Translations under genes and position numbers: made by a program
The notes under the pieces: model-generated
What the model was told of the DNA's origin: nothing
Databases searched by the model: none
The model's input: the letters and a program-made list of their open reading frames with translations, nothing else
NCBI GenBank assembly: GCA_910585715.1
Contig: CAJUEX010000013.1
Span: forward strand, 801-64,800
DNA: 64,000 bases
DNA from: an uncultured Lachnospiraceae bacterium
GTDB lineage: Bacteria > Bacillota > Clostridia > Lachnospirales > Lachnospiraceae
Direction of reading: 5' to 3'
Part shown: piece by piece, positions 7,376 to 57,743 of the stretch
How positions within the stretch are numbered: the stretch's first letter is position 1
How the letters are laid out: the number at the start of each line of letters is the position of its first letter

Positions 7376-7404
7376 TTTTTTAGAGGATTTGGAGAATCCG
7401 GTTA

Positions 7405-9633: not shown

Positions 9634-9675
9634 ATAATACCTTCTTTCTTTTATTTCCTGTTATTTTCCACCGCA

Positions 9676-9706: not shown

Positions 9707-9798
9707 ACGGTATATGTTTCTGTTTCAGTGCTTTTCACTTCAGACATATTACCATCAAAATGTATTTTCACCTGCAAACACATTTTCAAAATATATCG

Positions 9799-14995: not shown

Positions 14996-15157
14996 TTTAC
15001 TTCATTCCCCGTTTTTCTTTGGGTAGTTACCTCCTTATTACTTCTGGATTTTATATGTTCTGTGAAATCCATATCCCGATTCCTGTGGGAGAAACTGTCT
15101 GAACTGTTATTTAAAATTCGCACATAACATACAATAGGGTGCCGCAATGCGGCACCT

Positions 15158-28272: not shown

Positions 28273-29502
28273 TCACCTTCCCCCAACCTGGTGCCTTGAA
28301 AATCCCCTTCCCGTAAATACCATACACAAAACTGCCGCCGCCCCATAAGCGATACAGAGCATGGAAATATAGGAAAGCACCACATTCCCTATCTGACAAC
28401 TGTTATAAGTAGACAGCACTTCCTTAAAATCCGTAATGTACACAGGCCTTAAAAATAAAATCCAGTTTATCAGACGGCTGTTTTTGGAAAAAGGAATAAA
28501 TATAGTTCCAAGAAGCAACAGGAAATCTACCGCAAGCACTATCAACGGATTTTTGCTGCGGGCTGACAGCAGCATGGAAAAGGCACCTATAAAGGCTGCC
28601 ATCAAAAGCATTATCCCTAAATGTACTGTCACAGCTTGTAATACGGTCCAGTCGTAGGGAGAATTTTTGGAAAAAAGCTGTACCGGCAAATTGTAGCCTT
28701 CCACACCAAAAACTGCCATAAGGCTTCCTGCCGATATGACTGCGCAAAGCAGCGTATAGCCTACGGAAAAAAGGAAGACAGCAATCATCTTTGCACCTAT
28801 AAGCTTTGTCTTTCCAAACTTTGCCGTAAGAATCAGGGCGTCTGTCCGATTTTGGTACTCTCCCGCAAAAACAGGTGCGATACAGATACTGATGACAAAA
28901 AGCGAATAGAACAAAGCACCTATATTATTCCAGATAAAATTCCATGTTTCTGTATTTCCAAATAAAAAAGGTGTTTTTACTGTTTGTGCTTTCTCCATCC
29001 AGAACTGCTTTTCTTTTTCCGTATAATTTCCATAAGAGTAATCCATATTCAGACCGTTTCTTATTTTTTCCAGCCGCCTTTCATAAAAGCCGATTCCATT
29101 GGTTGTGTCAATAGAAGCTAAATCCTCCCATGCCCATTGTTCATTCCATTCTGAATAGTTGCTGCAGACTATTGAAAAAAGACGTGTATTGGGTGAAATC
29201 AGCCACCAGCCGTAGCCCTCTTCTCCCGGTTCCAGTTTCTTCAGCTGCTTTTGATAATCCGTTACGATTTCTGTAAGATACTCCTCGCTTAAAACCCCTG
29301 TCTGGGCTTTATCATATTCCGCCTGCATTTTTACTGCTTTCAGTCCTTTTACGATTGGCGCCTCTTTGTTCAACCGGAAGTCCTCGCTTTTTACACTATA
29401 ATAATTAACAAAAAGCAGTAAAAGCAATCCGAGAAACATGGCTGTCCTGTTTACTTTCTTTTTCCATATTTTTTTCAGTTCAAACCCGATTAAGCTTAAC
29501 AT
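28273..29502 (-). CDS. ABC-2 type transporter permease
   Basis: 409 aa. An N-terminal TM helix is followed by a large extracytoplasmic loop and 5 C-terminal TM helices. It overlaps the ATPase gene by 7 nt. Confidence 0.7.
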   Translation of the reverse strand: MLSLIGFELKKIWKKKVNRTAMFLGLLLLLFVNYYSVKSEDFRLNKEAPIVKGLKAVKMQAEYDKAQTGVLSEEYLTEIVTDYQKQLKKLEPGEEGYGWWLISPNTRLFSIVCSNYSEWNEQWAWEDLASIDTTNGIGFYERRLEKIRNGLNMDYSYGNYTEKEKQFWMEKAQTVKTPFLFGNTETWNFIWNNIGALFYSLFVISICIAPVFAGEYQNRTDALILTAKFGKTKLIGAKMIAVFLFSVGYTLLCAVISAGSLMAVFGVEGYNLPVQLFSKNSPYDWTVLQAVTVHLGIMLLMAAFIGAFSMLLSARSKNPLIVLAVDFLLLLGTIFIPFSKNSRLINWILFLRPVYITDFKEVLSTYNSCQIGNVVLSYISMLCIAYGAAAVLCMVFTGRGFSRHQVGGR

Positions 29503-30368
29503 TTTGTTCCCTCCTGAAAATAGTATAAATACAAATCCTCCAAAGTTCCCTTTACACTGATGCCATTTTCAAAGGGCTTTGTTTCACTAATGATGCGAAA
29601 GGTGGTTTTTCCGTCATTATGATGCATATTTGCCACGTTGAAATTTTTCACAATATGCTCTGTTTCTTTCTCATCACGGACGCATTCCCATACCTTTCCT
29701 TCCACATGCTGTTCCATTTCCCCTACGGTTCCCGTAAGCTTCAGCTGACCGTCCTTCATAAGAAGTATCCTGTCGGCAATGGCTTCCACATCCGATACGA
29801 TATGGGTGGACAACAGCACGATTTTATTTTTTCCAAAATCCGCTATCAGGTTCCGAAAGCGCACTCTCTCCTTGGGGTCAAGTCCTGCGGTAGGCTCATC
29901 CAGTATAAGAATCTTCGGGTCGTTTAACATTGCCTGGGCAATTCCCAGCCTCTGCTTCATTCCTCCGGAATAGGTTTTAATCCTCTTTTTCATCACCTGC
30001 AAAAGCCCTACCTGCTCCAAAAGCTGCCTTGTTTTGTCCTTTGCCTTTCCATAGGGAAGTCCTTTTAAGGAAGCCATGTACATCATAAACTCGCAAGCGG
30101 TAAAATCCGGATAATATCCGAAATCCTGCGGCAGATATCCCAACAGGTTCCGAAACTCCTCCCCCATCTCCATATTGTTTCTGCCATCCACCTTGATTTC
30201 TCCTCCTGTAGGCGTCAGGATGCCGCAAAGCATGCGCATAAATGTGGTTTTTCCGGCTCCGTTTGCTCCTAACAGCCCATAGACGCCTTCTCCCAGCTTT
30301 ATGGATATCCGGTCTACGGCAATTTTGTTTTTATATTGTTTCGTTACTCTGTCAATTGAAAGTTCCAT
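29496..30368 (-). CDS. ABC transporter ATP-binding protein
   Basis: The start is taken at MELSIDRVTKQYKNK; the track ORF starts 27 codons earlier. It has Walker A GANGAGKTT, signature YSGGMKQR and Walker B ILILDEPTAGLD. Confidence 0.9.
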   Translation of the reverse strand: MELSIDRVTKQYKNKIAVDRISIKLGEGVYGLLGANGAGKTTFMRMLCGILTPTGGEIKVDGRNNMEMGEEFRNLLGYLPQDFGYYPDFTACEFMMYMASLKGLPYGKAKDKTRQLLEQVGLLQVMKKRIKTYSGGMKQRLGIAQAMLNDPKILILDEPTAGLDPKERVRFRNLIADFGKNKIVLLSTHIVSDVEAIADRILLMKDGQLKLTGTVGEMEQHVEGKVWECVRDEKETEHIVKNFNVANMHHNDGKTTFRIISETKPFENGISVKGTLEDLYLYYFQEGTKC

Positions 30369-31084
30369 ACGTATTTCTCTCCGTTTCTGGTAATCATTAT
30401 TATTTGTCTTATCAAAAGCAGCAGGAATATGCCTGCCGCAAGCAGCCAACCGCCTATATACTCCATTTCATAAATAACCGGCTTCCTATAGGCGGCTGTT
30501 CCAAAGGCAATCATCACCCCGGCGCTGATGGCAAAGCACACAAAGGAAATATCCCCTGCCTTCATATAACAGACTGTAAGCAGCGTGAGAAAGCTGGTTA
30601 TCAGATAAGGTAGCAGCAGATAAATTCCCGCCTGCCAGTAAGTTACCTTATGCTCCATTGCCAGAAACGGCGCCAAAAGCAGAAATAAAAGCATATTCAT
30701 CATTCCCAGAAGATTGATTCGGATAAGAAGCACATTTCCCAGAGAAAATCTGGTGGACATTTCCAGTTCTTCCATCCGGTACTGCCTGGAACGGATAAGC
30801 TCCATGGAAGCAAACAGGGCAAACATGGGGGTAAGGGCGGAAATCATGCCGATTTCCTGTCTGTTTCCAAAAAGCAGCCTGTCCTTCTGGCATAACAGGA
30901 ACAACAGGAAGAAAATCCCCACGGAGCCTATCCAGGTTCTCTTTTTTATGAATTTTGCCTGTAACAGCCATAGCTGCCATTTGGGGATTCTCGGATAAGA
31001 CAGTGATTTTAAAAACTCTTCCCTTCTGTCCGGAAGAGGGGCTTCAAATGCTTGTAACAGCCCGTTTTTCAGCTTTTTATTCAT
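30344..31084 (-). CDS. Putative anti-sigma factor, polytopic membrane protein
   Basis: The start is taken at MNKKLKNGLLQAFEAP..., in an ATGA overlap with the sigma gene stop. A short cytoplasmic N-terminus is followed by about 6 TM helices. The function is inferred from its position after an ECF sigma gene. Confidence 0.5.
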   Translation of the reverse strand: MNKKLKNGLLQAFEAPLPDRREEFLKSLSYPRIPKWQLWLLQAKFIKKRTWIGSVGIFFLLFLLCQKDRLLFGNRQEIGMISALTPMFALFASMELIRSRQYRMEELEMSTRFSLGNVLLIRINLLGMMNMLLFLLLAPFLAMEHKVTYWQAGIYLLLPYLITSFLTLLTVCYMKAGDISFVCFAISAGVMIAFGTAAYRKPVIYEMEYIGGWLLAAGIFLLLLIRQIIMITRNGEKYVWNFQLTE

Positions 31085-31560
31085 AGAAAATCCTCCTTTT
31101 TTAAATATTTTTTTAATTCCTGACATGCTTCTTTTGTTTTGCGGTAAACAACAAACCTCGAGCAATTTGTTATCCTGCTGATTTCTTCTACCGACACTTG
31201 GTTTACATAACGAAGCAGCAACAGCTCCTGCTTCTCTTCCGTAAGATGGTTCAGCGCCTGCTTTAGTGCAATGGCAGAATCTAAATCCATTTCCTTTCCG
31301 GCATCTGTCTTTTGCAACAGCTTTCCCTCATCCGGAAGCTCTCTTATGCTGCTTTTCTGTTTTCTGAAATAGTCCACACACAGATTCTTTGCAATAGTAT
31401 ATAAATATGCCAAAGGCTTTCCCCGGCTGATATAGGTGTTTTGGCTGAAGTAGCGCAGGAAGGTTTCCTGGGTCAGGTCTTCTGCCAGATGGGGGTTTTG
31501 GACTTTAAAATAGCAGTATCTGTAGATTTTGTCGTATTGTTCTTCTATTTCCAATGGCAC
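31081..31560 (-). CDS. ECF-type RNA polymerase sigma-70 family factor
   Basis: 159 aa with a GTG start and AGGAGG upstream. Region 2 reads AEDLTQETFLRYF...YLYTIAKNLCVDYFRK. Region 4 reads LLLLRYVNQVSVEEISRITNCSRFVVYRKTKEACQELK. Confidence 0.85.
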   Translation of the reverse strand: MPLEIEEQYDKIYRYCYFKVQNPHLAEDLTQETFLRYFSQNTYISRGKPLAYLYTIAKNLCVDYFRKQKSSIRELPDEGKLLQKTDAGKEMDLDSAIALKQALNHLTEEKQELLLLRYVNQVSVEEISRITNCSRFVVYRKTKEACQELKKYLKKEDFL

Positions 31561-32097: not shown

Positions 32098-32379
32098 TTA
32101 TTCAGCAAATAAATCTGCATGTGTTCCTGTATCAATCAATGTTAGTGTCAGTACATCATCTTCTATAAGATATATTAACAGCCAGTCGGGTTGTATATGA
32201 CACTCTCGATATCCTTTATAATTTCCAATCAGGGCATGATCCCTGTTTTTAGCTTCCAAAGGGATTTTATGCAACAATTTCTCTACAATATCCTGCAACA
32301 AAGAAATGTCCAGCCCTCGCTTTTTTGCAAGTTTCAATCCCTTTTTAAACTTTCCTGTAAGGATTAATTCATAATTCAT
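32098..32379 (-). CDS. yafQ: Type II toxin, YafQ/RelE family mRNA interferase
   Basis: 93 aa. FKKGLKLAKKRGLD...NRDHALIGNYKGYRECHIQPDWLLIY...DTGTHADLF matches the YafQ pattern. It overlaps the antitoxin gene by 4 nt. Confidence 0.8.
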   Translation of the reverse strand: MNYELILTGKFKKGLKLAKKRGLDISLLQDIVEKLLHKIPLEAKNRDHALIGNYKGYRECHIQPDWLLIYLIEDDVLTLTLIDTGTHADLFAE

Positions 32380-32648
32380 ATGTCCAAATCCTCCAATGCT
32401 TCTGAAAAGCTGCTATACCGTTTTGCATTGGGATCCTTGCTGAGCTGTTTTGCTTCCTCCATAGCTTCCATTACTTCTGGCTTATATCTGGGAATTTCCA
32501 CGCTAAAGGGAAGTCCGCCCCGCATAATGGATTGTCTCAAAAACATATTCACAGCGCTGGACATATCAATTCCAAGCTGGTTAAAAAGTTCTACTGCCTG
32601 TTTCTTAACATCCTCTTCTATTCTTATCTGAGTTTGCACAGTGGCCAT
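32376..32648 (-). CDS. dinJ: Type II antitoxin, DinJ/RelB family
   Basis: The start is taken at MATVQTQIRIEEDVKKQAVELFNQLGIDMSSAVNMFLRQ, a ribbon-helix-helix pattern typical of DinJ. Confidence 0.8.
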   Translation of the reverse strand: MATVQTQIRIEEDVKKQAVELFNQLGIDMSSAVNMFLRQSIMRGGLPFSVEIPRYKPEVMEAMEEAKQLSKDPNAKRYSSFSEALEDLDI

Positions 32649-32754
32649 TTCATCACCTTCTTTCTTTGTTTTCATTGTAAACCAAATTGTTTACGCTGTC
32701 AATTGTTCAAGTGTAAAAAGGCTAATTCTTACTTTCTATTTTATTCAATCCTGC

Positions 32755-34650
32755 CTATTTTATTTTAATTTTCACTTTTGACCTTTTGTTGCTTCCGTCC
32801 GTGGACCTTGCGGTGATGGTGACGTTTTTTCCTTTTCCGGCCTTTTTGGCGGTTATCTTTCCCTTACTGTTGACAGTGGCATATTTATTGTTGGAGCTTG
32901 TCCATTTCAAGGATTTATTGGCATTCTTTCCGGTAGTCCCTACGGTTGCCTTTATGGTCATGGTCTTTCCGGTCTTTAAGGTCTTCCCGGATGCCTTCAG
33001 CTTTATACTTTTGACAGCATGCTGCATAATCTTTATCTTTATCCGGGCTTTTTTTGCACTTCCATCCTGTGCCGCTGCGATAACGGTTACCTGCTTTCCA
33101 ATGCCTGCTTTCTTCAAGGTTATGGTGCCATTCTTGTCCACAACGGCATATTTTCCATTGCCGGTTTCCCATTTAACAGCATTGTTTGTGGCATTTTCCG
33201 GAGTGAGCTTCAGGGTCAGTTTTACTTTCTTTCCGGCAGCCAGCTTTCCGGAAGGTGCCTGAATGGAAAGCTTTTGCACCTTTATTTCATAAATCTTTAT
33301 GGAAGTCTCTGACACATCACTTATCCGATAGCCCCTGCATACTGCTACCGCCTTAATGGTCATGTTTCGGTCTATGGTGATTTCTCCCGTGTAACGGATA
33401 CTTGCCGTGGTTGGCATGGTTCCGTCCGTTGTATAGTATATGTCTGCCTCCTTAGTCCCACAGCTTAAGGCCAGCTTTGTATTTTTCACCACTGTGCTTC
33501 CTGAAGAAAGTGAGGCAGTGGGTATTGCCGCTTTTTCATCCCCTCCCACGCCACTGGTACCATCATTTGTCATAAACCAGTGGGCAGATGACAAATTGAT
33601 ATGCAGAGCCGGACAGATGCCTGGACCGGAAAGAATCCAAAGATTACCTTCTAATCTAACATCACCGCCAACCCTATACACATATGCTGCTGAATGACTG
33701 GGTTCTCCGCAGCCCGGAGAACCCAGCCACCAATAGCGATCTATCCCTCTGGCTTTGGAATAGTCACTGGCATCTATCCTTCTGGTCTTAGAGTTTATTT
33801 TATAATCACTGCAAAATCCATACGCTTCATTGGTCACTTCCCCTATAGACAGCAAATAGACGTTATCCTCTGTATCCTTTCCGCCTGCTGTGCCGTACTC
33901 CGGATTATCCTCATTCACTACCCTGTGGGCTACAATAGCTCTTTGTTCTTCGCTGTTAAAAGCAGCATTATAAAAATAGTCATTCAGCCAATTCCTTTTT
34001 GGGCTTTCTTCCCACTGATTTCTACTGCCATAACCGCAATCAATTGCTGTATCCGCTACTACAAACAGGGTATTCCCGTTATTTTCCAACACCTTCCATT
34101 TGATTCGTTCCCATTTAAAATAAAGGTATCCATTGTTAGCTACATCATCCTCATACTCCTCATAATCTGCCTCATATTCGCTAATCCTGCGGTACTTGCT
34201 TCCATTGACCCATACATCTTCTATTCCTGCCTCTATCTCTATTCCGCAAACAGGAATAGCCTTATCAATGGCTGCTCTCGTTGCCCCGTCTGTAACCTCG
34301 CTTTGGGGGTAACTTCCAAAGTATATAAAATCAAAGTCCGTATCATCTAAATCACCATTTTCTTTGTTGCAGTGGTGAACCGGGTTTGCCGGACCTGTTG
34401 TTGCCGCTCCCGCCTGTATTTCAGACTGACCTTGTCCTGAAACGGCAGCTTCAATAGTTTCTTCCGATTCCATTTCCTCACTTTCAGGAAATTGGTTTTC
34501 GCTGACTGTTGGAATTGCTTCTCCTGTCACTTCATTCCCGCTGACTGCCCCATTTGCAGCAAATGCTATATTCGTCTGGAACAACAGGAGGATTGACAAC
34601 AGACATGTCATGACAACTCTTCCTGAACTTTTCTGTCTTTTCCTGTTCAT
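32755..34650 (-). CDS. Secreted multidomain protein, paralog 1: signal peptide, acidic linker, DUF6273-like core, CHB_HEX_C-like domain, 2 x Big_2
   Basis: The start is taken at MNRKRQKSSGRVVMTCLLSILLLFQTNIAFA, with GGAG upstream. Core motifs are PANPVHHC, YFGSYPQSEVTD, YFKWERIKWKVL, WWLGSPG and ICPALHINLSS. ADIYYTTDGTMPT...MTIKAVAV is chitobiase C-terminal-like. Two lysine-rich Big_2 repeats end in TITARSTDGSNKRSKVKIKIK. Confidence 0.8.
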   Translation of the reverse strand: MNRKRQKSSGRVVMTCLLSILLLFQTNIAFAANGAVSGNEVTGEAIPTVSENQFPESEEMESEETIEAAVSGQGQSEIQAGAATTGPANPVHHCNKENGDLDDTDFDFIYFGSYPQSEVTDGATRAAIDKAIPVCGIEIEAGIEDVWVNGSKYRRISEYEADYEEYEDDVANNGYLYFKWERIKWKVLENNGNTLFVVADTAIDCGYGSRNQWEESPKRNWLNDYFYNAAFNSEEQRAIVAHRVVNEDNPEYGTAGGKDTEDNVYLLSIGEVTNEAYGFCSDYKINSKTRRIDASDYSKARGIDRYWWLGSPGCGEPSHSAAYVYRVGGDVRLEGNLWILSGPGICPALHINLSSAHWFMTNDGTSGVGGDEKAAIPTASLSSGSTVVKNTKLALSCGTKEADIYYTTDGTMPTTASIRYTGEITIDRNMTIKAVAVCRGYRISDVSETSIKIYEIKVQKLSIQAPSGKLAAGKKVKLTLKLTPENATNNAVKWETGNGKYAVVDKNGTITLKKAGIGKQVTVIAAAQDGSAKKARIKIKIMQHAVKSIKLKASGKTLKTGKTMTIKATVGTTGKNANKSLKWTSSNNKYATVNSKGKITAKKAGKGKNVTITARSTDGSNKRSKVKIKIK

Positions 34651-34714
34651 ATAATTTCTCCTTTTACAAAAAATACGATACATTTACGTTTCATGGAATA
34701 TGTATGCCTATATG

Positions 34715-34873
34715 CTATTTACTTTTCATATTACAGATTCCTTTTTCTATTGTAACTCCGCTCATGCCTGCTAATAATAAAAATAATCCTGTAGAGGACT
34801 TTGAAAAACTCATCCAAATAAAGCTTGCTATCAGCCCGGCAATTCCCACAATAAGTAATGCATATTTTTTCAT
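34715..34873 (-). CDS. Possible 52-aa two-TM small membrane protein between paralogs 2 and 1
   Basis: My translation gives MKKYALLIVGIAGLIASFIWMSFSKSSTGLFLLLAGMSGVTIEKGICNMKSK, with AGGAGA 6 nt upstream of the ATG. It is below the track length cut-off. Confidence 0.35.
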   Translation of the reverse strand: MKKYALLIVGIAGLIASFIWMSFSKSSTGLFLLLAGMSGVTIEKGICNMKSK

Positions 34874-34883
34874 ATCAGCTCTC

Positions 34884-36560
34884 CTATTCTATCCTAATTT
34901 TGACTTGTGCTTTTTTATTGCTGCCATCCGTGGACTTGGCGGTAATGGTAACCGTCTTTCCTTTTCCGGCCTTTTTGGCGGTTACCTTTCCCTTACTGTT
35001 GACAGTGGCATATTTCTTATTGGAGCTTGTCCATGTAAGGGACTTATTAGCGCTCTTTCCGGTAGTTTTCACCGTTGCTTTTATGGTCATGGTTTTTCCG
35101 GCTTTTAATTTTTTAGCAGGAGCCTTCAAGGTTATTTTTTTCACTGCGTGCTTCATGATTTTAAACTTACAGGAAGCTTTTACCTGACTGCCGTCTAAAG
35201 CTGATGCCGTAATGGTCACGTTCTTTCCGGCGCCTGCTTTTTTTATGGTTACTTTCCCCGTTTGGTCTACGGAAGCATATTGGGAATTGCTGCTTTGAAA
35301 GCTTACGGCTTTATTGTCAGCGTTTTCCGGAAATACCTGCAGGGTCAGGGTTACTTTTTTTCCTGCTGCAAGTTTTCCTGAGGGAGCTGTTAACGTCAGC
35401 TTCGTTACCTTTGTCTCTTTTGCTTTACCGGGATCATCTGACACCGTTGTTTCCTCTCCCCCATTTCCACTGGTACCGTCATCTGTCATGAACCAGACAT
35501 CAGAAGATAAATCAATATGCAAAGCCGGGCAGACACCTTTGTCCCTAAGTTCAACCTTTTTATCGATACACCACCCTTTTATTCCAACACACTCAACAGC
35601 ATCGTAATAGTAGCGAGAACGCAGCCAATAATCGCCGTTGTATCTGTAATCAGCCGAACTGCTTCTGGTTGCACCTCTGGCATTGGCATAATCACTCACT
35701 TTCGCTCTTCTGCTCATGGAATATACTGAGGTATCATCACAAAACCCATATTCCGGATTGGATACTTCTGTCTTGGATAATATATAAATATCATTACTTG
35801 TTGCCCATTCATTTTCAGTTATGACTGTCTGCATTACAATGGCACTTTGCTCCCTGTAATTAAAAGCCGAGCTGCAAAAGCTGTTGTTCAGCCAACTCCT
35901 GATTTCGCTGATCGCCCAACCCTTATAGCTGCTTTTGGTATCAAAAATTTTACAATCTATCGCCTTATCCGCTGTTACAAATAAGGTTCTCCCATTATTT
36001 TTCAGCACCTTCCACTTAATCCGTTCCCATTTAAAATAACGAAAGCCACTATGCTTCACCTCATCAAAATAAGCATCATTATTGGTGTCCGCTTTACTGA
36101 TTCTCCGGTACTTGATTCCGTTTACCCATACATCAATCCCTGTCTCTGCTGCTTTGGATGTGGTGATTGCCTTTTCAATGGCAGCTATAGTGGCGCTGTC
36201 TGTTACCTCACTTTGTGGATAGCTTCCAAAATATACATAGCTAAAATCCGTATAGTCTGAGCCGTCATCTTTTTTGGTACAGTGATGAACCGGATTTGCA
36301 GGACCCGCTGCCCCTGCCTGAATCTCAGTCAGACTTTCACCTGAAACAGCTTCTTCCCCTTCTAAGGGCTGATTTTCGCTGACTGTGCCAATTGCCTCCT
36401 CTCCTGCCGGCTGATTCCCGCTGATTGTTCCAATTGCCTCCTCTCCTGCCGGCTGATTCCCGCTGATTGTTCCAGCCGTGGCAAATGCCACATTTGCCTG
36501 AAACAACAAAAGGAGAGACAACAGAAGTGCGGTTATGTTTATGCTGCGTTTCTTATTCAT
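34884..36560 (-). CDS. Secreted multidomain protein, paralog 2: signal peptide, repeat linker, DUF6273-like core, 2 x Big_2
   Basis: 558 aa. The signal peptide is MNKKRSINITALLLSLLLLFQANVAFA. It has the same core motifs (PANPVHHC, YFKWERIKWKVL, YWLRS, VCPALHIDLSS) and the same Big_2 pair as paralog 1, but no CHB_HEX_C-like domain. Confidence 0.8.
   Translation of the reverse strand: MNKKRSINITALLLSLLLLFQANVAFATAGTISGNQPAGEEAIGTISGNQPAGEEAIGTVSENQPLEGEEAVSGESLTEIQAGAAGPANPVHHCTKKDDGSDYTDFSYVYFGSYPQSEVTDSATIAAIEKAITTSKAAETGIDVWVNGIKYRRISKADTNNDAYFDEVKHSGFRYFKWERIKWKVLKNNGRTLFVTADKAIDCKIFDTKSSYKGWAISEIRSWLNNSFCSSAFNYREQSAIVMQTVITENEWATSNDIYILSKTEVSNPEYGFCDDTSVYSMSRRAKVSDYANARGATRSSSADYRYNGDYWLRSRYYYDAVECVGIKGWCIDKKVELRDKGVCPALHIDLSSDVWFMTDDGTSGNGGEETTVSDDPGKAKETKVTKLTLTAPSGKLAAGKKVTLTLQVFPENADNKAVSFQSSNSQYASVDQTGKVTIKKAGAGKNVTITASALDGSQVKASCKFKIMKHAVKKITLKAPAKKLKAGKTMTIKATVKTTGKSANKSLTWTSSNKKYATVNSKGKVTAKKAGKGKTVTITAKSTDGSNKKAQVKIRIE
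36388..36471. repeat. Perfect 42-bp tandem duplication inside paralog 2
   Basis: 36388-36429 is identical to 36430-36471 (ccaattgcctcctctcctgccggctgattcccgctgattgtt). It encodes the duplicated peptide ISGNQPAGEEAIGT. Confidence 0.95.
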
Positions 36561-36577
36561 ACTCCCTATTCCTTTGC

Positions 36578-38434
36578 TTATTTTATAGTAATTTTTACGG
36601 TTGCTTTTTTATTGCTTCCGTCCGTGGATATTGCAGTTATGGTCACGCTCTTTCCTTTCCCTGCCTTTTTTGCCGTTACCCTGCCCATACTGCTGACGGT
36701 TGCATATTTTTTATTGGAGCTTTTCCAGATTAAGGACTTATTTGCATTTTTTCCGGTAGTTTTCACAGCTGCCTTTATGGTCATGGACTTTCCCGCTTTC
36801 AAAGTTTTCTTTTGTGCTTTTAGTTTTATGTTCTTTACTGCATGTTTCATAATTTTAAAGCGATAAGCGGATTTCACCTTACTGTTTCCACAAGCTGATG
36901 CCGTTATGGTAACACTCTTTCCAATTCCCGCTTTTTTTACTGTGACAGTTCCATTTTTATCTACGGAAGCATATTTCTTATTGCTGCTCGTCCATTGCAC
37001 TGATGCGGCAGATGCCCCTTTGGGAGTCGTCTTTAAAGTCAGCCTGACTTTTTTTCCTGCCGCCAGTTTTCCGGAAGGTCCTGTGACGGAAAGCTTCTTT
37101 AAAGCTTTTACTGTAATTGTGATGGAAGCGTTGCAGGCAGCGCCACCGGATGTATAAGACACGGTCAGGGTTTTCTTTCCGGGGGTATTCATATTGATTT
37201 CTGATGCATTCGTGATATATTTACCGGATTTCAATTCTTTTGCTGGATGTTGTTTATAAAAAGCAGTTATCTTCAGGTCATCGATAGTCAGAGCTTCTCC
37301 TGCGTAGTAGACAGTTTTTTCTTTAGAAGCCTGAAGGCTTACAGGTATCTTTTCCTCGCCCGCTTCCCCACTGGTACCATCATCTGTCATAGACCAAAGG
37401 GCAGAGGACAGATTAATTTGCAGCGCCGGGCAAATACCATAGTTCGAGGAATTAAATGCCCCAATGTCCAGCTTTCCATTAACTGCCATGACATCATTGC
37501 CATTTTGAGCGGGAGAGCGCAACAACCAGGCGCAGCCGTCTTTTCTGCTTCCTTTTGCATAGGTATAACTGCTTGGCTGAACTATCCTGCTCATAGATGC
37601 TTCATTATAACTACAGAATCCGTATTGTTCATTTGTCACTTCTCCTATGGACAAAAGCCAGACTTTATCATTTGTGTTATTTCCACCTGGCGTACCATAG
37701 TCCGGATTATTATCATTCACCACTTTCTGTGCCACAACGGCATTTTGCTCACTGTTACTAAAAGCCGTGTGATAAAAACTGTCGTTTAACCACTTCCTTA
37801 AGGTGCAGGTTTCCCATGTAACATATCGCCCTTCTTCATCGAAAGGTTTATAATCAACTGCTTTGTCTGCCACTACCAATAAAGTCTTCCCATCATTCTT
37901 AAGTACTTTCCACCGGAGTCTCTCCCATTTAAAATAGCGGTAGCCTTTATTCGTTGGTTCCCAGTCAAACCATGAATTACCAGAATCCTTTTTACTGATT
38001 CGACGGTACTTAATACCATTCACCCATACATCCTTCCCTACTTCTGCCGCTGTTCCGGATGCGATAATTGCCTTGTCAATGGCATCTATGGTTGCTTTAT
38101 CCGTCACCTCACTTTGGGGATAGCTGCCAAAATAGATATAGCTAAACTCTGTGGTATGGCGACTGTGATCATGAATCGGATTTACAGGACCTGTAATGTC
38201 TCCTGCCTGTATTCCCGGCAGGCTTTGGCCGGAAATGGTAATTTCCGGTTCGTTTCCGCTGACTGCATCATTTTCCCCCAATATAAAATCAGAGGAAGAA
38301 GTGTCTGCTGCTTCCTCCCCTTCTCCTGCCCTGTTATCACTGACTGTCTGTGCAAAAGCAGGCAGTCCTCCCGTGGAAAACAATAGCACAGCCGCTAATA
38401 AAAGCGGCAAAAACCGTATGTTCTTTCTTTTCAT
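36578..38434 (-). CDS. Secreted multidomain protein, paralog 3: signal peptide, DUF6273-like core, group-3-like Ig domain, 2 x Big_2
   Basis: 618 aa. The signal peptide is MKRKNIRFLPLLLAAVLLFSTGGLPAFA. It has the core motifs PVNPIHDH, YFKWERLRWKVL, WLLRSP and ICPALQINLSS. The middle domain KTLTVSYTSGGAACNASITITV looks like a bacterial Ig-like group 3 domain. It lies only 17 nt upstream of paralog 2. Confidence 0.8.
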   Translation of the reverse strand: MKRKNIRFLPLLLAAVLLFSTGGLPAFAQTVSDNRAGEGEEAADTSSSDFILGENDAVSGNEPEITISGQSLPGIQAGDITGPVNPIHDHSRHTTEFSYIYFGSYPQSEVTDKATIDAIDKAIIASGTAAEVGKDVWVNGIKYRRISKKDSGNSWFDWEPTNKGYRYFKWERLRWKVLKNDGKTLLVVADKAVDYKPFDEEGRYVTWETCTLRKWLNDSFYHTAFSNSEQNAVVAQKVVNDNNPDYGTPGGNNTNDKVWLLSIGEVTNEQYGFCSYNEASMSRIVQPSSYTYAKGSRKDGCAWLLRSPAQNGNDVMAVNGKLDIGAFNSSNYGICPALQINLSSALWSMTDDGTSGEAGEEKIPVSLQASKEKTVYYAGEALTIDDLKITAFYKQHPAKELKSGKYITNASEINMNTPGKKTLTVSYTSGGAACNASITITVKALKKLSVTGPSGKLAAGKKVRLTLKTTPKGASAASVQWTSSNKKYASVDKNGTVTVKKAGIGKSVTITASACGNSKVKSAYRFKIMKHAVKNIKLKAQKKTLKAGKSMTIKAAVKTTGKNANKSLIWKSSNKKYATVSSMGRVTAKKAGKGKSVTITAISTDGSNKKATVKITIK

Positions 38435-38460
38435 TTGTATTCCCCCTTCTTAAAATTTTA

Positions 38461-38868
38461 TTATTTCAAATAGTCATTTAACTCATCAATCTTCACTACC
38501 GTCATGCCATGTTCCGGATTGCCAAGCACTAACAGCTGGTCTCCCTTTTGGATATGTAATACCTTTCTTGCCTTCTGGGGAATGGGCATCAAGCCCCCTT
38601 CCCCTACTTTTACAATTCCAAACACATATTTCCCGGTCTGTGCGGCAAGCTCTCCTTCCCCTATCCGGCGTTCTCTTTCGCTTAATGTCAGTTCGTCCAG
38701 GGAGCTTTCATACAAATCCATCAGTTTTTTGCACTTTACTACATCGGGCAGGGTTTCACCCGCTTCCCATTTTGCAATGGTCTGGCGAGAAACGTCTATT
38801 CTCTCTGCCACATACTCCAATGAGAAGTTTTTTTCTTTTCTCAGCTTCTTTAGTCTTTTTCCTATCAT
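38461..38868 (-). CDS. XRE-family HTH regulator fused to a SpoVT/AbrB-like domain
   Basis: 135 aa. The HTH is LKKLRKEKNFSLEYVAERIDVSRQTIAKWEAG. The C-terminal part GIVKVGEGGLMPIPQKARKVLHIQKGDQLLVLG is looped-hinge AbrB-like. Confidence 0.8.
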   Translation of the reverse strand: MIGKRLKKLRKEKNFSLEYVAERIDVSRQTIAKWEAGETLPDVVKCKKLMDLYESSLDELTLSERERRIGEGELAAQTGKYVFGIVKVGEGGLMPIPQKARKVLHIQKGDQLLVLGNPEHGMTVVKIDELNDYLK

Positions 38869-38898
38869 GTCTTTTCCGTCTCCTGCCTTACTACCTAA

Positions 38899-39020
38899 AA
38901 TTATATAAATTGCACAAAACTATTACAATAAACTTTCCTTAACATATATGTCATGAAAAGTTACAGTCATAACTATGTGCCTTCTTACCAGTAATATCCC
39001 TTAGGCAGTAAAAAGGTTGC
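38899..39020. repeat. Duplicated intergenic module, copy 1 (upstream of the XRE-AbrB gene)
   Basis: About 120 bp are clearly alignable by eye with 41286-41417. Shared blocks include ttatataaatt.cac.aaac.attacaataaactttccttaaca and ctaatatccc...aaaaaggttgc. Confidence 0.85.
38900..38928 (-). promoter_or_regulatory. Predicted sigma-A promoter for the XRE-AbrB gene and possibly the paralog 3-2-1 genes downstream
   Basis: The minus strand has TTGTAA (38928-38923), a 17-nt spacer and TATAAT (38905-38900). This lies about 30 nt upstream of the start codon and its AGGAGA ribosome-binding site. Confidence 0.5.
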
Positions 39021-39076
39021 ATAGCAAATAAAAAAATTATGACAGGACCACTCACTTGGTGGAAGTTGTAAGAAAA

Positions 39077-41161
39077 TTATTTTATCTGAATCTTCACCGC
39101 CGCCTTTTTATTGCTCCCGTCCGTGGATTTGGCGGTAATAGTAACCGTCTTTCCTTTCCCGGCTTTTTTGGCGGTTACCTTTCCCTTACTGCTGACGCTT
39201 GCATATTTTTTGTTGGAACTTGTCCATTTCAGGGATTTGTTGGCATTCTTTCCGGTGGTTTTTACAGTGGCTTTTATGGTCATGCTCTTTCCGGCTTTTA
39301 AAGTCTTCTTTGGCGCTTTCAGCTTTATGGTTTTTACGGCATGTTTCATAATTTTTATTTTTATGGACGTCTTTTTGCCGCTTCCGTCCTGGGCTGTTGC
39401 TGTTATGGTTACCGTTTTCCCTATGCCTTTCTTTTTCAGGGTTATCTTTCCGTTTTTATCCACAGCGGCATACTTTTTATTGCTGCTTTTCCATTTGACG
39501 GCTTTATTTCCGGCATTTTCCGGGGTGAACTTCAGGGTCAGTTTCACTTTCTTTCCGGCGGCAAGTTTTTTGGAAGGGGCTTTAATAGTGAGCTTTTGGA
39601 CTTTCTGTCTGCTGCTGCCATTATTTTGACTGCCGTTTCCATTGTTGCTTCCATTTCCATTATTGTTTCCATTTCCGTTATTTCCTCCACTGCCGCTCTT
39701 TTTCAGCGTGTAAGTAAACTCTGCCACGTCGCTTTGACGGCAGCTCCGGCTTACCGCAATCGCCTTAACGGTCATGTTCCGGTTTATTGTAATTGTTCCC
39801 GAATAAAGAGTGCCTGCCGTGGTAGGCGTAGTTCCGTCTGTAGTATAGTATATACTGGCTCCGGGGGTGGCACAGCTTAAGCTCAGCTTTGTGTTTTTTG
39901 CAACACTGCTTCCTGTCGGAAGGGAAGCTGTGGGCATGGCTGCCTTTTCGTCCCCGCCCTCGCCGCTGGTTCCGTCATCTGCCATGTACCAAAGGGCAGA
40001 TGAAACGTTTATATGCATGGCCGGACAGACGCCGCATATGTTCCCTAATACAATAGGTCCGCCAGAATATATGACGGCCCCCCATTGGACCACATACATA
40101 GCACGTTCACGGCAATCCGACGTCACACCTGGAGCGAGAGGCGAACGCAACCACCATGTGCAGGAATCCTTATCAACAGTTCCAACACTACTACTCTGAC
40201 GATCATTCTCATAATGACTTACACCTCTTGTAATAGCATAGCTGCTTGCTTTCATCATACGGCTTCGGCTTCCGGCTTCCTTTTTAGTACAAAATCCATA
40301 TTCTCCATCCGACACTTCTTCTGCAGACAAAAGATATATCTTATCATCCGTATCATCATTTGTATTATCATTTGTATGGTATTCGTAACTGATATTTTCT
40401 ACAGTATGCATTATAACAGCGCTTTGCTCAATATTGCTAAAGGCTGTATTGTAAAAGCCGTTATTCAGCCAGTTCCTCATAGTGCTGGTTTTCCATACAT
40501 TATTTCTATATTTTTCATTAAAACGTTTACAGTCAATTGCCTTATCCGCTACTACGAACAAAGTATTTCCGTCATTTTTCAGTACCCTCCACTTTATCCG
40601 TTCCCATTTAAAATAACGGTAGCCATTGTTTGGCACATCATCAAAATATCCGTCATAAGTTGTATCATCTTTGCTGATTCTCCGGTACTTAATTCCGTTT
40701 ACCCATACATCCGTCCCTGCATCCGCTGGTATTCCGGATGTGCTGACGGCCTTATCAATAGCTGCTATGATGGCGCCGTCTGTCACCTCGCTCTGTGGAT
40801 AGCTTCCAAAGTATATGTAGCTGAAATCCGTATAGTCTAAATTACTTCCCTCTTTTATACAGTGGTGGACCGGATTTGCCGGTCCGGTTACTGCCCCTGC
40901 CTGTATTTCCGGCAGGGTCTGCCCGGAAACGGTGTCTTCCTCTTCGTCCGGACTTTCCCCGGCTCCCGGTTCTTCATTTGTACAAGGTCCGTTTTCGCTG
41001 ACTGTTATTGCCGGCTCTTCCTCCCTTGCTGTCTCATTGCTGTCGGCTATGCCACTTGAAGCAAAAGCCGTGCCTGTCTGGAACAGCAGAAGGATGGACA
41101 GCAATACTGCCAAAACTGCCTTTTCTTTTTTCCTCTGTAACCATTTTTGTTTCCTTTCCAT
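39077..41161 (-). CDS. Secreted multidomain protein, paralog 4: signal peptide, acidic linker, DUF6273-like core, CHB_HEX_C-like domain, Asn/Gly linker, 2 x Big_2
   Basis: 694 aa. It has a signal peptide (...LAVLLSILLLFQTGTAFA) and the same core motifs. ASIYYTTDGTTPT...MTVKAIAV is present. The low-complexity linker reads SGSGGNNGNGNNNGNGSNNGNGSQNNGSS. Confidence 0.8.
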   Translation of the reverse strand: MERKQKWLQRKKEKAVLAVLLSILLLFQTGTAFASSGIADSNETAREEEPAITVSENGPCTNEEPGAGESPDEEEDTVSGQTLPEIQAGAVTGPANPVHHCIKEGSNLDYTDFSYIYFGSYPQSEVTDGAIIAAIDKAVSTSGIPADAGTDVWVNGIKYRRISKDDTTYDGYFDDVPNNGYRYFKWERIKWRVLKNDGNTLFVVADKAIDCKRFNEKYRNNVWKTSTMRNWLNNGFYNTAFSNIEQSAVIMHTVENISYEYHTNDNTNDDTDDKIYLLSAEEVSDGEYGFCTKKEAGSRSRMMKASSYAITRGVSHYENDRQSSSVGTVDKDSCTWWLRSPLAPGVTSDCRERAMYVVQWGAVIYSGGPIVLGNICGVCPAMHINVSSALWYMADDGTSGEGGDEKAAMPTASLPTGSSVAKNTKLSLSCATPGASIYYTTDGTTPTTAGTLYSGTITINRNMTVKAIAVSRSCRQSDVAEFTYTLKKSGSGGNNGNGNNNGNGSNNGNGSQNNGSSRQKVQKLTIKAPSKKLAAGKKVKLTLKFTPENAGNKAVKWKSSNKKYAAVDKNGKITLKKKGIGKTVTITATAQDGSGKKTSIKIKIMKHAVKTIKLKAPKKTLKAGKSMTIKATVKTTGKNANKSLKWTSSNKKYASVSSKGKVTAKKAGKGKTVTITAKSTDGSNKKAAVKIQIK

Positions 41162-41285
41162 CTCAGCTTCCCCTTTCCTCTTGCTTACTGTCTGAAATTG
41201 TGATAAATATGTAACCTTTTAATGATTCGACTACATCTTAATGCCGATTGCGGATTAAATTTTATTGTAATTGTTTATACCTAAT

Positions 41286-41314
41286 ATTATATAAATTACA
41301 CTAAACGATTACAA
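41286..41314 (-). promoter_or_regulatory. Predicted sigma-A promoter for paralog 4 (duplicate of the XRE promoter)
   Basis: The minus strand has TTGTAA (41314-41309), a 17-nt spacer and TATAAT (41291-41286). This leaves a leader of roughly 120 nt before the ATG at 41161. Confidence 0.45.
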
Positions 41315-41417
41315 TAAACTTTCCTTAACATACCTCCAACATATATGTTACGAAAACTTACAGCCATGATTATGCAAGCTCTTATTACTAATATCCCATA
41401 GAAGCCAAAAAGGTTGC
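41286..41417. repeat. Duplicated intergenic module, copy 2 (upstream of paralog 4)
   Basis: This is the counterpart of 38899-39020, with a small insertion (acctccaac). Confidence 0.85.
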
Positions 41418-41494
41418 TTCCTAAAAAAACGGACAATGCTCCTTTTGCATCGTCCGTTTTCAAAAAACATTCTTATTTTATTCTGTTTATTCCG

Positions 41495-49433: not shown

Positions 49434-50591
49434 ATGAAAACGATAAGAACAGCAATAGACTTTCCAAATCCATCCTATCCGTTAGAGCATATAGACGAAC
49501 TTTCCAAAATTTTATTCGTTGATATTGAAACAACAGGTTTTGCAGCAAAATCCTCTTATTTATATTTAATCGGCTGCCTGTGTTATGAGGAAGGAGGCTG
49601 GCAGTTAATACAGTTCTTGGCAGAGGACTACATTGAAGAGCCTTTTATCTTACAGGAATTTTTAGTTCTTTGTAAGGAATACCACACTTTAATTCATTAT
49701 AACGGCAACAATTTTGACCTGCCTTATTTAAGGCAGAAATGCGAACAATTCGGGCTAAAGCCTCCCTTTGACCAGATAAATACGGATAATATGGATAATC
49801 CGGAAAATACAGAACGCACAGCCATGAACGGGATTGACATTTACAAGCGTATTTCCGGCTTTAAAAATATTCTTCATCTGGAAAACTGCAAACAGAAAAC
49901 GCTGGAAAACTTCCTTGGAATTTCCAGAGAAGACAAATACAACGGAGGAGAACTGATTTCCATTTATCACGATTATGCTAAAACAAAAAAACCTGAATTA
50001 TTGGAGCTTCTTCTGCTTCATAACAAGGAGGACATGCAGGGTATGTTCGCATTGCTTCCCATATTATCCTATATGGACATACTGCTTGTTCCTTTCCGGG
50101 TGGTAAAGGTTCAGGCAAATCATTACGACAATATATCCGGCACCCGCTCCTATGAGGTGTTAATGAAAATAAAATTCCACACCGCCTTCCCAAAACCAAT
50201 AGCCATCCACAAAAACGGCTGTCATTTCAGCGGTCAGGGCAAAGAAGGCTATTTAAAGGTTCCCTGCCTGAAAGAAGAACTGAAATTCTTTTATTCAAAC
50301 TACAAGGATTACTACTACCTTCCCATGGAAGATACGGCACTGCACAAATCCGTAGCCGCCTATGTAGACAAAGACTTCCGCAAACAGGCAACCGCAGCTA
50401 ACTGCTACACAAAAAAACAAGGCACCTACCTCCCGGAATGGTCTCCCCTCTTTACCCCCATCTTCAAAAAAAGCTATCAGGATAACGACCTGTTCTTTGA
50501 ACTGACCGAAGAAATGAAACGCAGCCCGGAAGAATTTACAAAATACGCCCTCCACATCATGGATATGCTGATTCATGAAGGAAAAAAATAA
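49434..50591 (+). CDS. RNase H-like / YprB-type predicted exonuclease domain protein
   Basis: The start is taken at MKTIRTAIDF, with AGGAGG upstream; the track ORF starts 27 codons earlier. ILFVDIETTGF and HYNGNNFDLPYL are DEDD/RNase_H_2-like motifs. Confidence 0.7.
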   Translation: MKTIRTAIDFPNPSYPLEHIDELSKILFVDIETTGFAAKSSYLYLIGCLCYEEGGWQLIQFLAEDYIEEPFILQEFLVLCKEYHTLIHYNGNNFDLPYLRQKCEQFGLKPPFDQINTDNMDNPENTERTAMNGIDIYKRISGFKNILHLENCKQKTLENFLGISREDKYNGGELISIYHDYAKTKKPELLELLLLHNKEDMQGMFALLPILSYMDILLVPFRVVKVQANHYDNISGTRSYEVLMKIKFHTAFPKPIAIHKNGCHFSGQGKEGYLKVPCLKEELKFFYSNYKDYYYLPMEDTALHKSVAAYVDKDFRKQATAANCYTKKQGTYLPEWSPLFTPIFKKSYQDNDLFFELTEEMKRSPEEFTKYALHIMDMLIHEGKK

Positions 50592-50626
50592 TAACGGTTC
50601 AGACAGCATCTCACCCACAGGAATCG

Positions 50627-50683
50627 GAATACAGATTTGACAAAATCTATAGCCAGAATACGGATTTGACAAAATCTATAGCC
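50627..50683. repeat. Two tandem 28-bp direct repeats
   Basis: gaatacagatttgacaaaatctatagcc (50627-50654) and gaatacggatttgacaaaatctatagcc (50656-50683) differ at one position. Each contains the small palindrome agattt-gaca-aaatct and a TTGACA hexamer. Confidence 0.9.
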
Positions 50684-56997: not shown

Positions 56998-57570
56998 TTA
57001 TGACTGAAAATATGCCTGATAAGAAGCCTTTAGCAAATCCATTGTCTCTGCTTCTTCCAAATCATAATCACCTGTAACTACCATGCAGGCAGCTCCATGA
57101 ATGAAAATCCACATTTTCATAAACAGTTCACTGGGATTTTGAGCCCCGGCGGTTTTTGCCTTGTTGATTTCTTTTACCAAAGCTCCTTCCCTGCCGTTTA
57201 ACAGCTCATACAGACTTTTGCCATATCTGTTTTTAGACAAAAACAGCACTTCAAACAAATGAGGCTCCACCTGGGCAAATTTAATATAGGCAAGTCCCAG
57301 ATTGATAAAAGGAGTATCGTCCATTTTGGGGAAGCCTTTATAAAATTCCGAGAAATATCGAATCACTTCATCATAAACCTGAGAATAAAGTTCATCCATA
57401 TTTTTATACACCCGGAAGATTGGCTGGGTGGAACATCCGATTTTTCCTGCCAGCCTTCTGGCCGTCAGCATTCCATGCCCCTCTTCCTTTGTAAGCTCAA
57501 AGGCCGCTTTAATGATATCTGCTCTTGTGGTTGTTTCTTTTCTTGCCATATTCTGCTTTGCCCTTTCCAT
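56998..57570 (-). CDS. TetR/AcrR family transcriptional regulator
   Basis: The start is tentatively taken at MERAKQNMARKETTTRADIIKAAFELTKEEG; MARKE is an alternative. The HTH is TARRLAGKIGCSTQPIFRVY. Confidence 0.8.
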   Translation of the reverse strand: MERAKQNMARKETTTRADIIKAAFELTKEEGHGMLTARRLAGKIGCSTQPIFRVYKNMDELYSQVYDEVIRYFSEFYKGFPKMDDTPFINLGLAYIKFAQVEPHLFEVLFLSKNRYGKSLYELLNGREGALVKEINKAKTAGAQNPSELFMKMWIFIHGAACMVVTGDYDLEEAETMDLLKASYQAYFQS

Positions 57571-57743
57571 GGTTCTTCTTTGTCCTGCTGTACTATTAGC
57601 ATTTCGGGACAATATGATGTTATTTTCAGGTACAAAAATAACATATGTTATCACACATACTTTATTTTAGTATAAAATAAATATTATGTCAACTGTTTTT
57701 TTCTGTGTAACCTAACAGCAAAAATGCAAAAAAAAAGCGCTTT

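Follow-up and report, generated by a model that had tools for sequence, protein, structure and literature searches.

Why would a bacterium keep several versions of one secreted protein gene side by side, what do their products do, and what makes them differ? The question is raised by a 64,000-nt stretch of contig CAJUEX010000013.1 (assembly GCA_910585715.1, an uncultured Lachnospiraceae bacterium), which we call the window. Its reverse strand carries an array of four paralogous genes, P1 to P4, with the gene for an XRE-family regulator embedded among them. The products share a conserved domain of about 275 residues that contains Pfam DUF6273 (the head) and a lysine-rich pair of Big_2 domains at the C-terminus (the tail). 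The head is homologous to the N-terminal domain of an IgA peptidase and to targets of phage diversity-generating retroelements (DGRs). The paralogs vary most where phages hypermutate, and here the variation is fixed in old paralogs. On balance, we lean towards the view that the locus is a repertoire of Sec-exported binding proteins, probably retained on the cell surface, with a specificity based on a hairpin, remodelled by recombination and set by the regulator.

In this interpretation, the array would supply a set of exported binding proteins, probably held on the cell surface, each presenting its extended DUF6273 head at the N-terminal, outward end. The head may bind a ligand through a surface β-hairpin between the WWLRSP and CPAL motifs, and differences in that hairpin would give the paralogs different specificities. 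Optional Ig-like spacers (CHB_HEX_C_1, Big_3 or none) separate the head from the cationic tail, which may hold the protein non-covalently on the anionic cell wall. Diversity is encoded in the genome, in old paralogs and in homologous recombination between repeats, and not supplied by a retroelement. The XRE-family regulator would set expression through a palindrome next to the -35 element, both ahead of the regulator, P3, P2, a 52-aa open reading frame (ORF) and P1, and ahead of P4.

The paralogs and their variable head

The array members and a fifth paralog, P5, have the following positions in the window.

32755-34683, reverse strand: P1, 642 aa; DUF6273 head (33562-34392), CHB_HEX_C_1 spacer, cationic Big_2 pair (32758-33282)
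34884-36560, reverse strand: P2, 558 aa; DUF6273 head (35478-36302), no spacer domain, cationic Big_2 pair (34887-35411)
36578-38434, reverse strand: P3, 618 aa; DUF6273 head (37379-38188), Big_3 spacer, cationic Big_2 pair (36581-37105)
39077-41161, reverse strand: P4, 694 aa; signal peptide and acidic linker, then DUF6273 head (39974-40882), CHB_HEX_C_1 spacer with N/G-rich linker, Big_2 pair (39080-39604); monocistronic and preceded by a promoter-block copy of its own (see below)
57792-59684, reverse strand: P5, 630 aa; DUF6273 head (58605-59444), CHB_HEX_C_1 spacer, cationic Big_2 pair (57795-58319)

A first-pass annotation of the window had described four co-oriented genes with one plan. 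We found the ORFs on the reverse strand where it had placed them, and the Pfam domains and N-terminal export signals agree with its description. P5, at which that annotation had hinted, was located by a tblastn search of the paralogs against the window; it lies 17 kb from the array and follows the CHB-type plan. All five proteins can be aligned end to end, with the motifs quoted earlier invariant or nearly so, and all share a signal peptide, an acidic linker, the ~275-aa head, an optional Ig-like spacer and the 175-aa lysine-rich Big_2 pair. P1 probably begins at Met12 (34650), behind an AAGGAGA ribosome-binding site; this start yields the 631-aa protein called by NCBI. DUF6273 (PF19789) was detected in P1-P4 with E-values of 8.5e-14 to 3e-26. 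Scores for P1 to P5 were 74.8, 52.2, 92.7, 83.6 and 87.9 bits (Pfam gathering threshold, 23.5 bits); of the ~275 residues conserved in the head, the model covers just the C-terminal ~150-180. Two stretches of Big_2 (PF02368) lie at the C-terminus of every paralog (69-87 bits, above threshold). The middle module is swapped between copies as proposed, since Pfam places CHB_HEX_C_1/Fn3_assoc in P1 and P4, Big_3 in P3 and nothing in P2.

Each N-terminus is basic, with one hydrophobic segment and an AxA-type cleavage site (…AFA before A, T, Q or S). The linkers that follow the signal peptide are acidic (pI 4.1-5.1); that of P2 (residues ~29-58, window ~36387-36476) contains two copies of a tandem 14-aa repeat, TISGNQPAGEEAIG. 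P4 has in addition an Asn/Gly-rich low-complexity stretch, GSGGNNGNGNNNGNGSNNGNGSQNNGSS, at residues ~490-517 ahead of its Big_2 pair.

The head belongs to a very large family. The P3 head used as query retrieved 226 relatives, with a best identity of 57%. Those with a source name are labelled hypothetical or DUF6273 proteins of Lachnospiraceae or Roseburia metagenome-assembled genomes (MAGs), and nearly all relatives come from Lachnospiraceae MAGs of animal guts. A profile search of 1.84 billion representatives yielded 32,067 members of the head family, counted as representatives of clusters at 50% identity, with 12,721 at E <= 1e-30. Many of these proteins carry 2-20 heads and reach lengths of up to 6,979 aa. 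Further modularity was seen among relatives at loci L024, L003, L007 and L026 and in proteins P0249-P0396.

AlphaFold2, run on a 60-sequence alignment, modelled the head as a single domain with high confidence (pLDDT 92.7, pTM 0.91). When this model was compared with 350,542 PDB chains using Foldseek, the only match with E <= 0.001 was 9qa6 (E 1.6e-4, probability 1.00, 257 alignment columns, 18% identity, query-normalised TM-score 0.41). This entry is the cryo-EM structure of the Thomasclavelia ramosa IgA peptidase (IgAse), including its N-terminal domain (PMC12237041, PMC12402451). That domain spans residues 31-321 and is annotated DUF6273. It has an irregular α/β fold with a C-type-lectin-like core of about twice the usual size, and is without the canonical long loop and disulfides; IgA cleavage does not require it, and no function is known for it (PMC12237041, PMC12402451). 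Three proteins named DUF6273 are among the top-ranked matches in a viral structure library (E 6.5e-7 to 5.4e-6). In gut phages, DUF6273 is a C-lectin-like DGR target with its variable region at the domain C-terminus (PMC10743442, PMC11792537).

The conserved core had been described as having no assigned function. This still applies to its function, but the core is no orphan, given the solved structure 9qa6, the published C-type-lectin-like fold and the receptor-binding role of the phage DGR proteins. The suggested structural comparison, for a catalytic or lectin fold, found the 9qa6 domain. With the DUF6273 sub-domain by itself, no match was significant: the best had an E-value of 0.77, PvdO followed at 1.9 and CLEC-2 at 2.6. 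Because this sub-domain test was weak and returned no significant match, we take the C-type-lectin label for the head from the literature. A PDB profile search with the head alignment missed 9qa6; its sole match, a phycobilisome-related cyanobacterial protein (E = 0.037), was rejected as spurious.

Where the paralogs differ is sharply localized. The segments that run from WWLRSP to CPAL or its equivalent lie at these positions.

40016-40156, reverse strand: hypervariable segment of the P4 head, WWLRSP…GVCPAM
33604-33732, reverse strand: hypervariable segment of P1
35520-35630, reverse strand: hypervariable segment of P2
37421-37528, reverse strand: hypervariable segment of P3
58647-58766, reverse strand: hypervariable segment of P5

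Between WWLRSP and G(V/I)CPAL the paralogs are only 16-37% identical, with omega about 0.5-1.2, compared with 0.11-0.26 in the head outside the segment. The entropy maximum of the 60-sequence family alignment falls on the same segment, which is modelled as a β-hairpin in the AlphaFold2 prediction.

We scanned 23 viral contigs that encode a homologue. Two IMG/VR contigs, L109 and L099, carry a reverse transcriptase together with a diagnostic repeat pair; the first phage match, viral contig L086, has no DGR. The two cassettes are as follows.

L109, 1977-4141: DGR cassette with reverse transcriptase, template repeat and variable repeat; 13/13 mismatches at template adenines
L099, 796-3058: DGR cassette with reverse transcriptase, template repeat and variable repeat; 16/16 mismatches at template adenines

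The stretch encoded by their variable repeats runs to (C/R)PAL and begins either immediately behind WWLR(T/S)P or at the WW motif itself; these variable regions align exactly with the hypervariable WWLRSP…CPAL segment of the paralogs. Such an alignment means that the position is equivalent, not that the paralogs are themselves DGR targets. The two cassettes should be useful reference cases for the DUF6273 domain family. The proposal of a diversifying family is borne out on two counts, since the most variable segment of the head coincides with the variable region of phage DGR targets and the gene content of the locus differs between strains and species.

Could the genes then be phage-derived receptor-binding proteins, or targets of a DGR elsewhere in the genome? 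DUF6273 is a frequent phage DGR target, and the Ig domains of the paralogs match phage structural PHROGs; the PHROGs scan gave matches on generic Ig domains and, on the head, to phrog_9958, a family without known function. We nevertheless consider this origin highly improbable. Scanned for ORFs of more than 200 aa with a YxDD motif, the 64-kb window showed no reverse transcriptase. It has no template/variable repeat pair or stray template repeat either: a self-BLAST returned paralog matches, the promoter-block repeat and one unrelated 62-nt match. None of 77 related chromosomal loci has a reverse transcriptase. A DGR in the window or in those loci was therefore rejected on the reverse-transcriptase motif scans and repeat searches. 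Moreover, the flanks are housekeeping genes (Rnf complex, M18 aminopeptidase) in an arrangement that is syntenic across species, the proteins have Sec signal peptides, and there were just two weak (26% identity) matches among 50,697 phage records. A PADLOC scan gave no defence-system matches on the paralogs.

The cationic tail and its probable role in retention at the cell

If the heads are displayed outside the cell, the question is what would hold them there. The annotation had listed no LPXTG, choline-binding or S-layer anchor, and our searches agree: the paralogs have no [LSN]PxT[GAS]/LPxTG motif and no C-terminal hydrophobic tail, their sole hydrophobic segment being N-terminal, and Pfam found no choline-binding (CW_binding_1) or SLH repeats in them. 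What they do have is charge. The last 175 residues, the Big_2 pair, carry a net charge of +32 to +46 (pI 10.5-10.95, 21-29% lysine), and the remainder of each paralog is acidic or neutral. The tail is also where the paralogs have diverged least, its second Big_2 domain showing 77-87% amino-acid identity and an omega of 0.04-0.14.

A search with the Big_2 pair alone returned 344 proteins at E <= 1e-10. Among the best 120 of these 344 matches, the pair ends <=3 residues from the C-terminus in 118, and its net charge ranges from +22 to +51. In 12 sequences that we read, it is preceded by LRR/BspA-like, FIVAR, MucBP, Flg_new, discoidin-like, Big_3 or DUF6273 modules, so that the pair is common to many otherwise unrelated surface proteins of Lachnospiraceae. 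The pair keeps strictly to the C-terminus whatever passenger precedes it, its sequence is extremely conserved and its charge is maintained. A localisation module would be expected to behave in this way, and on the simplest reading the pair would bind anionic wall polymers non-covalently. We found nothing direct in the literature on lysine-rich Big_2 domains as a wall anchor; a Butyrivibrio genome paper covers CW_binding_1 anchors only.

The syntenic array in the goat-gut MAG L024 offers an informative variant. Its proteins do not have the Big_2 pair. A known anchor in its place was considered and discarded, as a different, equally cationic Ig-like module is present: a divergent fn3-like plus Big_2 C-terminal module with a charge of +46 and +48. 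This is suggestive, not decisive; it favours charge over a specific recognition surface as the conserved property.

The same data bear on two other explanations of the proteins. In one, the cationic Ig-like pair would serve a dedicated machinery as a sorting or export signal, much as the Ig-like C-terminal domains of type IX secretion cargo do, and would not bind the wall electrostatically. Its strict C-terminal position and very strong conservation across unrelated N-terminal modules would suit such a signal, but no candidate machinery lies beside the genes, classical Sec signal peptides are present, and in L024 a sequence-unrelated, equally cationic module substitutes for the pair. We give this explanation little credence.

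The main rival has the proteins released into the medium in soluble form, to act as enzymes or binding proteins on glycans of the diet or the host, with a catalytic or sugar-binding head and with the Big_2 and CHB modules as spacers or helpers. In its favour are the CHB_HEX_C_1/Fn3_assoc modules, which glycosidases typically carry, the many invariant polar residues in the head and the lack of a recognised wall anchor. Set against this, the head matches no catalytic family in Pfam, NCBIfam or PDB, and the homologous domain of the IgA peptidase is dispensable for catalysis. The invariant charged residues of the head are D113, R132, E148, D175, E184, R202 and R225; no His or Cys is invariant across the 60 family members, and the HHC motif is absent from P3 and not family-wide. 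Finally, a cationic module at the extreme C-terminus (118/120), following unrelated modules in the 12 sequences, points to localisation rather than substrate binding. We regard release as unlikely, and surface retention through the tail as the better reading.

Recombination and proposed regulation at the locus

The order RnfB, aminopeptidase, regulator, DUF6273 genes and RelB/YafQ recurs in related MAGs with a differing content of DUF6273 genes. Four of these loci show the range.

L004: one Big_3-type gene; flanking proteins 92-97% identical
L008: a CHB-type gene
L024: at least four genes; array region 5505-9900
L003: a two-headed CHB gene followed by the regulator and a Big_3-type gene

Between five and seven loci are present in several of the related MAGs. 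A tree built from 66 heads has a star-like shape, and the window heads find their best counterparts in those MAGs at 57-71% identity. Over the 13 kb compared, the window itself matches contig CARDCQ010000014.1 (assembly GCA_948957445.1) with 100% identity.

Closer relatives reveal two events. L079, L081 and L082 have an identical regulator protein, and the DNA of the regulator region is 98% identical in L079 and L081; all three have no P4 between the aminopeptidase and the regulator. L085 (91-95% identical) likewise has no P4 there, and a 148-nt stretch of L085 aligns to both copies of a promoter block in the window. P4 is thus a cassette of about 2.4 kb between direct repeats.

The second event lies inside P3. 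In L085 the gene after the regulator encodes the 1003-aa protein P0243, which comprises a signal peptide, head 1, CHB, head 2, Big_3 and two Big_2 domains. P3 corresponds to head 1 of P0243 up to the DNA encoding the YFGSYPQSEV motif and to head 2 beyond it, an in-frame difference of 1155 nt, with 29-30 of 30 positions identical per 30-nt block on either side of the junction. The features involved are given here.

38105-38152, reverse strand: recombination junction inside P3, in the DNA encoding …FSYIYFGSYPQSEV; upstream corresponds to L085 head 1, downstream to head 2
38892-39039, reverse strand: promoter block copy B, upstream of the regulator, with -35 TTGTAA and -10 TATAAT at 38928-38900
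38931-38962, reverse strand: candidate operator of copy B, a 32-bp near-palindrome with half-sites AACTTTCCTTAACATA and TATGTCATGAAAAGTT, abutting the -35
41278-41425, reverse strand: promoter block copy A, upstream of P4, with the same -35/-10 at 41314-41286
41317-41359, reverse strand: palindrome of copy A, with the same half-sites 11 nt apart

Recombination between repeated head sequences and between repeated promoter blocks therefore remodels the locus between strains. The strain comparison that had been suggested for recombination and copy-number change thus gave a positive answer, in the presence or absence of P4 and in the one- and two-headed alleles of P3, though with a substrate other than the one proposed.

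The substrate proposed had been the 3' Big_2-coding ends, described as very similar between copies. One 150-nt comparison, of 32790-32940 with 34920-35070, is indeed 85% identical after a 1-nt shift (34% as written), but it is only a local peak: over the whole Big_2 pair the paralog DNAs are 59-80% identical, and BLAST matches between paralogs are 65-78% identical (the longest ones 70-78%). Could gene conversion or recombination through these ends be what mainly keeps the array similar, or diversifies it? Besides the 85% stretch shared by P1 and P2, two observations lend themselves to this. The longest run of matching third-codon positions falls inside that very stretch (13 sites over ~15 codons of Big_2b, P1 versus P2), with a borderline p = 0.005, and pS in Big_2b is somewhat lower among array members (0.51-0.64) than against P5 (0.73-0.80). 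Yet synonymous sites are near saturation in all regions, Big_2 included (pS 0.51-0.80, region-wise Nei-Gojobori), and in a GENECONV-style permutation test on 970 polymorphic sites, no tract passed Bonferroni correction (longest concordant runs, 9-25 nt). The omega of 0.04-0.14 explains the similarity of Big_2b, and the strain junctions that we observed fall in the promoter block and the head motif. We therefore attribute the 3' similarity to strong purifying selection on an old module, not to recent homogenisation, and consider it distinctly unlikely that the Big_2 ends drive the array.

The features that concern expression are the following.

38461-38868, reverse strand: XRE-family helix-turn-helix regulator, 135 aa; first gene of the probable operon of regulator, P3, P2, 52-aa ORF and P1
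34715-34873, reverse strand: 52-aa ORF with AGGAGA ribosome-binding site and two hydrophobic stretches; starts 10 nt past the P2 stop

Successive genes from the regulator to P1 are 26, 17, 10 and 31 nt apart, the final distance becoming 64 nt with a start of P1 at Met12, and every gene is preceded by a GGAGG-like ribosome-binding site. These short gaps and ribosome-binding sites fit a single operon. The regulator had been called an XRE-AbrB protein. Its HTH_3 domain is solid (residues 6-60, 58.2 bits, E 8.6e-16, above threshold), and the C-terminal half is weakly AbrB/MazE-like at below-threshold scores (TIGR01439, 20.1 bits versus a 28.3 cut-off, E 3.9e-4; Pfam MazE_antitoxin, 15.1 bits versus 24.7, E 0.023). 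The possible membrane peptide within the array also exists as an ORF, with its ribosome-binding site and two hydrophobic stretches, and may be translated. NCBI calls it as a gene, and an identical sequence occurs on 10 contigs; it has no family match, and none was present in the 77 related loci.

Local transcriptional control, which had also been proposed, is supported by the conservation of these elements. The regulator is kept at the locus in at least 5 species (L003, L004, L008, L024 and L085). The promoter-like element TTGTAA-17-TATAAT is identical ahead of the regulator and of P4, inside the common block of ~130-150 nt, and the promoter/palindrome block of ~90 nt upstream of the regulator is nearly invariant in five genomes whose proteins are 75-97% identical. 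From its position, its conservation and the duplicated site, the regulator would control both promoters. As P5 lacks a copy of this block, its regulation is presumably separate.

Several points weigh against the interpretation that we favour. Removal of the DUF6273 domain from IgAse, the sole protein studied, had no measurable effect (PMC12237041, PMC12402451). The TM-score to 9qa6 is modest, at 0.41, and the model of the isolated DUF6273 sub-domain reached a pLDDT of 78 only, with no significant PDB match in Foldseek. The invariant charged residues of the head could equally mark a conserved active or binding site apart from the variable hairpin. Nearly all tail matches are N-terminally truncated fragments, so that full architectures are incompletely known. 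Retention by the cationic tail is argued from position, charge and a published suggestion, not from an assay, and control by the regulator from position and conservation only.

A bolder version can be put forward, which we hold to be tentative and probably too far-reaching. The locus would be a recombination-driven cassette system in which strain-specific sets of lectin-like heads, under one repressor, recognise mucosal ligands such as IgA or mucin glycans, and the Big_2 pair would be a widespread, hitherto undefined anchor that binds Lachnospiraceae surface proteins to the wall non-covalently. Host mucosal ligands are proposed because the sole studied relative of the head sits on an IgA protease. 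If true, such a cassette system would be the genome-encoded counterpart of DGR action on the same hairpin in phages.

Neighbourhood, significance and known systems

On the reverse strand, the gene order is Rnf operon, M18 aminopeptidase, P4, regulator, P3, P2, 52-aa ORF, P1, RelB/YafQ, extracytoplasmic function (ECF) sigma/anti-sigma and ABC transporter. Just downstream of P5 is a TetR-family gene (56998-57654, reverse strand). The other neighbours of the array are these.

32098-32675, reverse strand: RelB antitoxin/YafQ toxin pair, directly downstream of P1, with its own strong promoter-like site TTGACA-17-TACAAT at 32702-32674
28273-31560, reverse strand: ECF-type sigma factor, putative anti-sigma factor (multi-pass membrane protein, no Pfam match) and ABC transporter pair, downstream of the array

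The RelB/YafQ pair occupies the same place in L004 (92-95% identity) and adjoins DUF6273 genes in L020; the sigma/anti-sigma genes are syntenic in L004. Elsewhere in the window, the 62-nt inverted match (15052-15111 versus 50590-50651, 81% identity) is unrelated to the array, and G+C content is 31% at positions 1-2000 compared with 37-48% in the rest. Rfam and tRNA scans of the window found nothing.

The genes add members to a family that is catalogued but uncharacterised, and they follow the familiar pattern of variable surface-protein families. As such families are common, nothing here is surprising in kind; the value lies in making an abundant domain of unknown function experimentally approachable. 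The head domain is among the larger uncharacterised families of gut Firmicutes, and its settings in an IgA protease, in DGR-diversified phage receptor-binding proteins and in chromosomal paralog arrays have not yet been linked by experiment. Our analysis explicitly links the arrays to the IgA-peptidase domain and to the position that varies in DGR targets. It also contributes two concrete strain-level recombination events, a defined candidate operator and a testable hypothesis for a widespread cationic Ig-like retention module. The locus is compact and tractable, with five natural head variants on one scaffold, cassette gain and loss and one- and two-headed alleles in near-identical strains, and a single conserved regulator with a clear candidate operator. 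Should retention by the cationic pair prove correct, it would aid prediction of the surface proteome in an abundant gut family whose proteins of this kind are largely without classical anchors.

Four known systems invite comparison. One is the C-terminal domain of Legionella Lcl (PDB 8Q4E), which has the closest fold to the IgAse N-terminal domain (PMC12237041). It was absent from the Foldseek matches of our head and has no sequence relationship to it, and it comes from a Gram-negative context with another architecture.

Roseburia intestinalis RiGH26 resembles the window proteins by description: it is a secreted modular Lachnospiraceae protein with no LPXTG motif and with a pair of Ig-like domains at the C-terminus (PMC6385246). 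Its surface location was shown by immunofluorescence, and attachment through the Ig-like domains was proposed by the authors, not demonstrated (PMC6385246). For lysine-rich Big_2 domains as a wall anchor, the literature search gave this suggestion as the only support. RiGH26 differs in having a catalytic GH26 domain and carbohydrate-binding modules where the window proteins have the DUF6273 head.

A third is the IgAse (ThomasA) N-terminal domain. In PDB, the whole ~275-aa head had no other significant match, and both carry Pfam DUF6273. It too stands at the N-terminus of a secreted multidomain Firmicute surface protein, after a signal peptide and before β-sandwich domains, and both heads are about twice the size of a canonical C-type-lectin-like domain. 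Against these likenesses stand the 18% identity and the TM-score of 0.41. IgAse also has an M64 metallopeptidase domain and an SPxTG sortase signal, whereas the window proteins have neither a catalytic domain nor a sortase motif. A structural zinc site in IgAse is formed by D78/H90/C126 (PMC12237041, PMC12402451).

The variable proteins of phage DGRs (tentaclins and the Faecalibacterium prophage targets; PMC10743442, PMC11792537) share the Pfam domain and carry Ig-like domains after the head. The structural matches in the viral library (E about 1e-6) belong here, and the variable region lies on the same segment. The window has no reverse transcriptase or template repeat, however, and the 77 related chromosomal loci have no reverse transcriptase. 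The window head also has an extra N-terminal sub-domain or insertion of ~85 aa that is missing from the short phage form. The phage proteins are parts of virions, whereas those of the window are Sec-secreted from chromosomal genes and owe their diversity to recombination and old paralogs instead of adenine mutagenesis.

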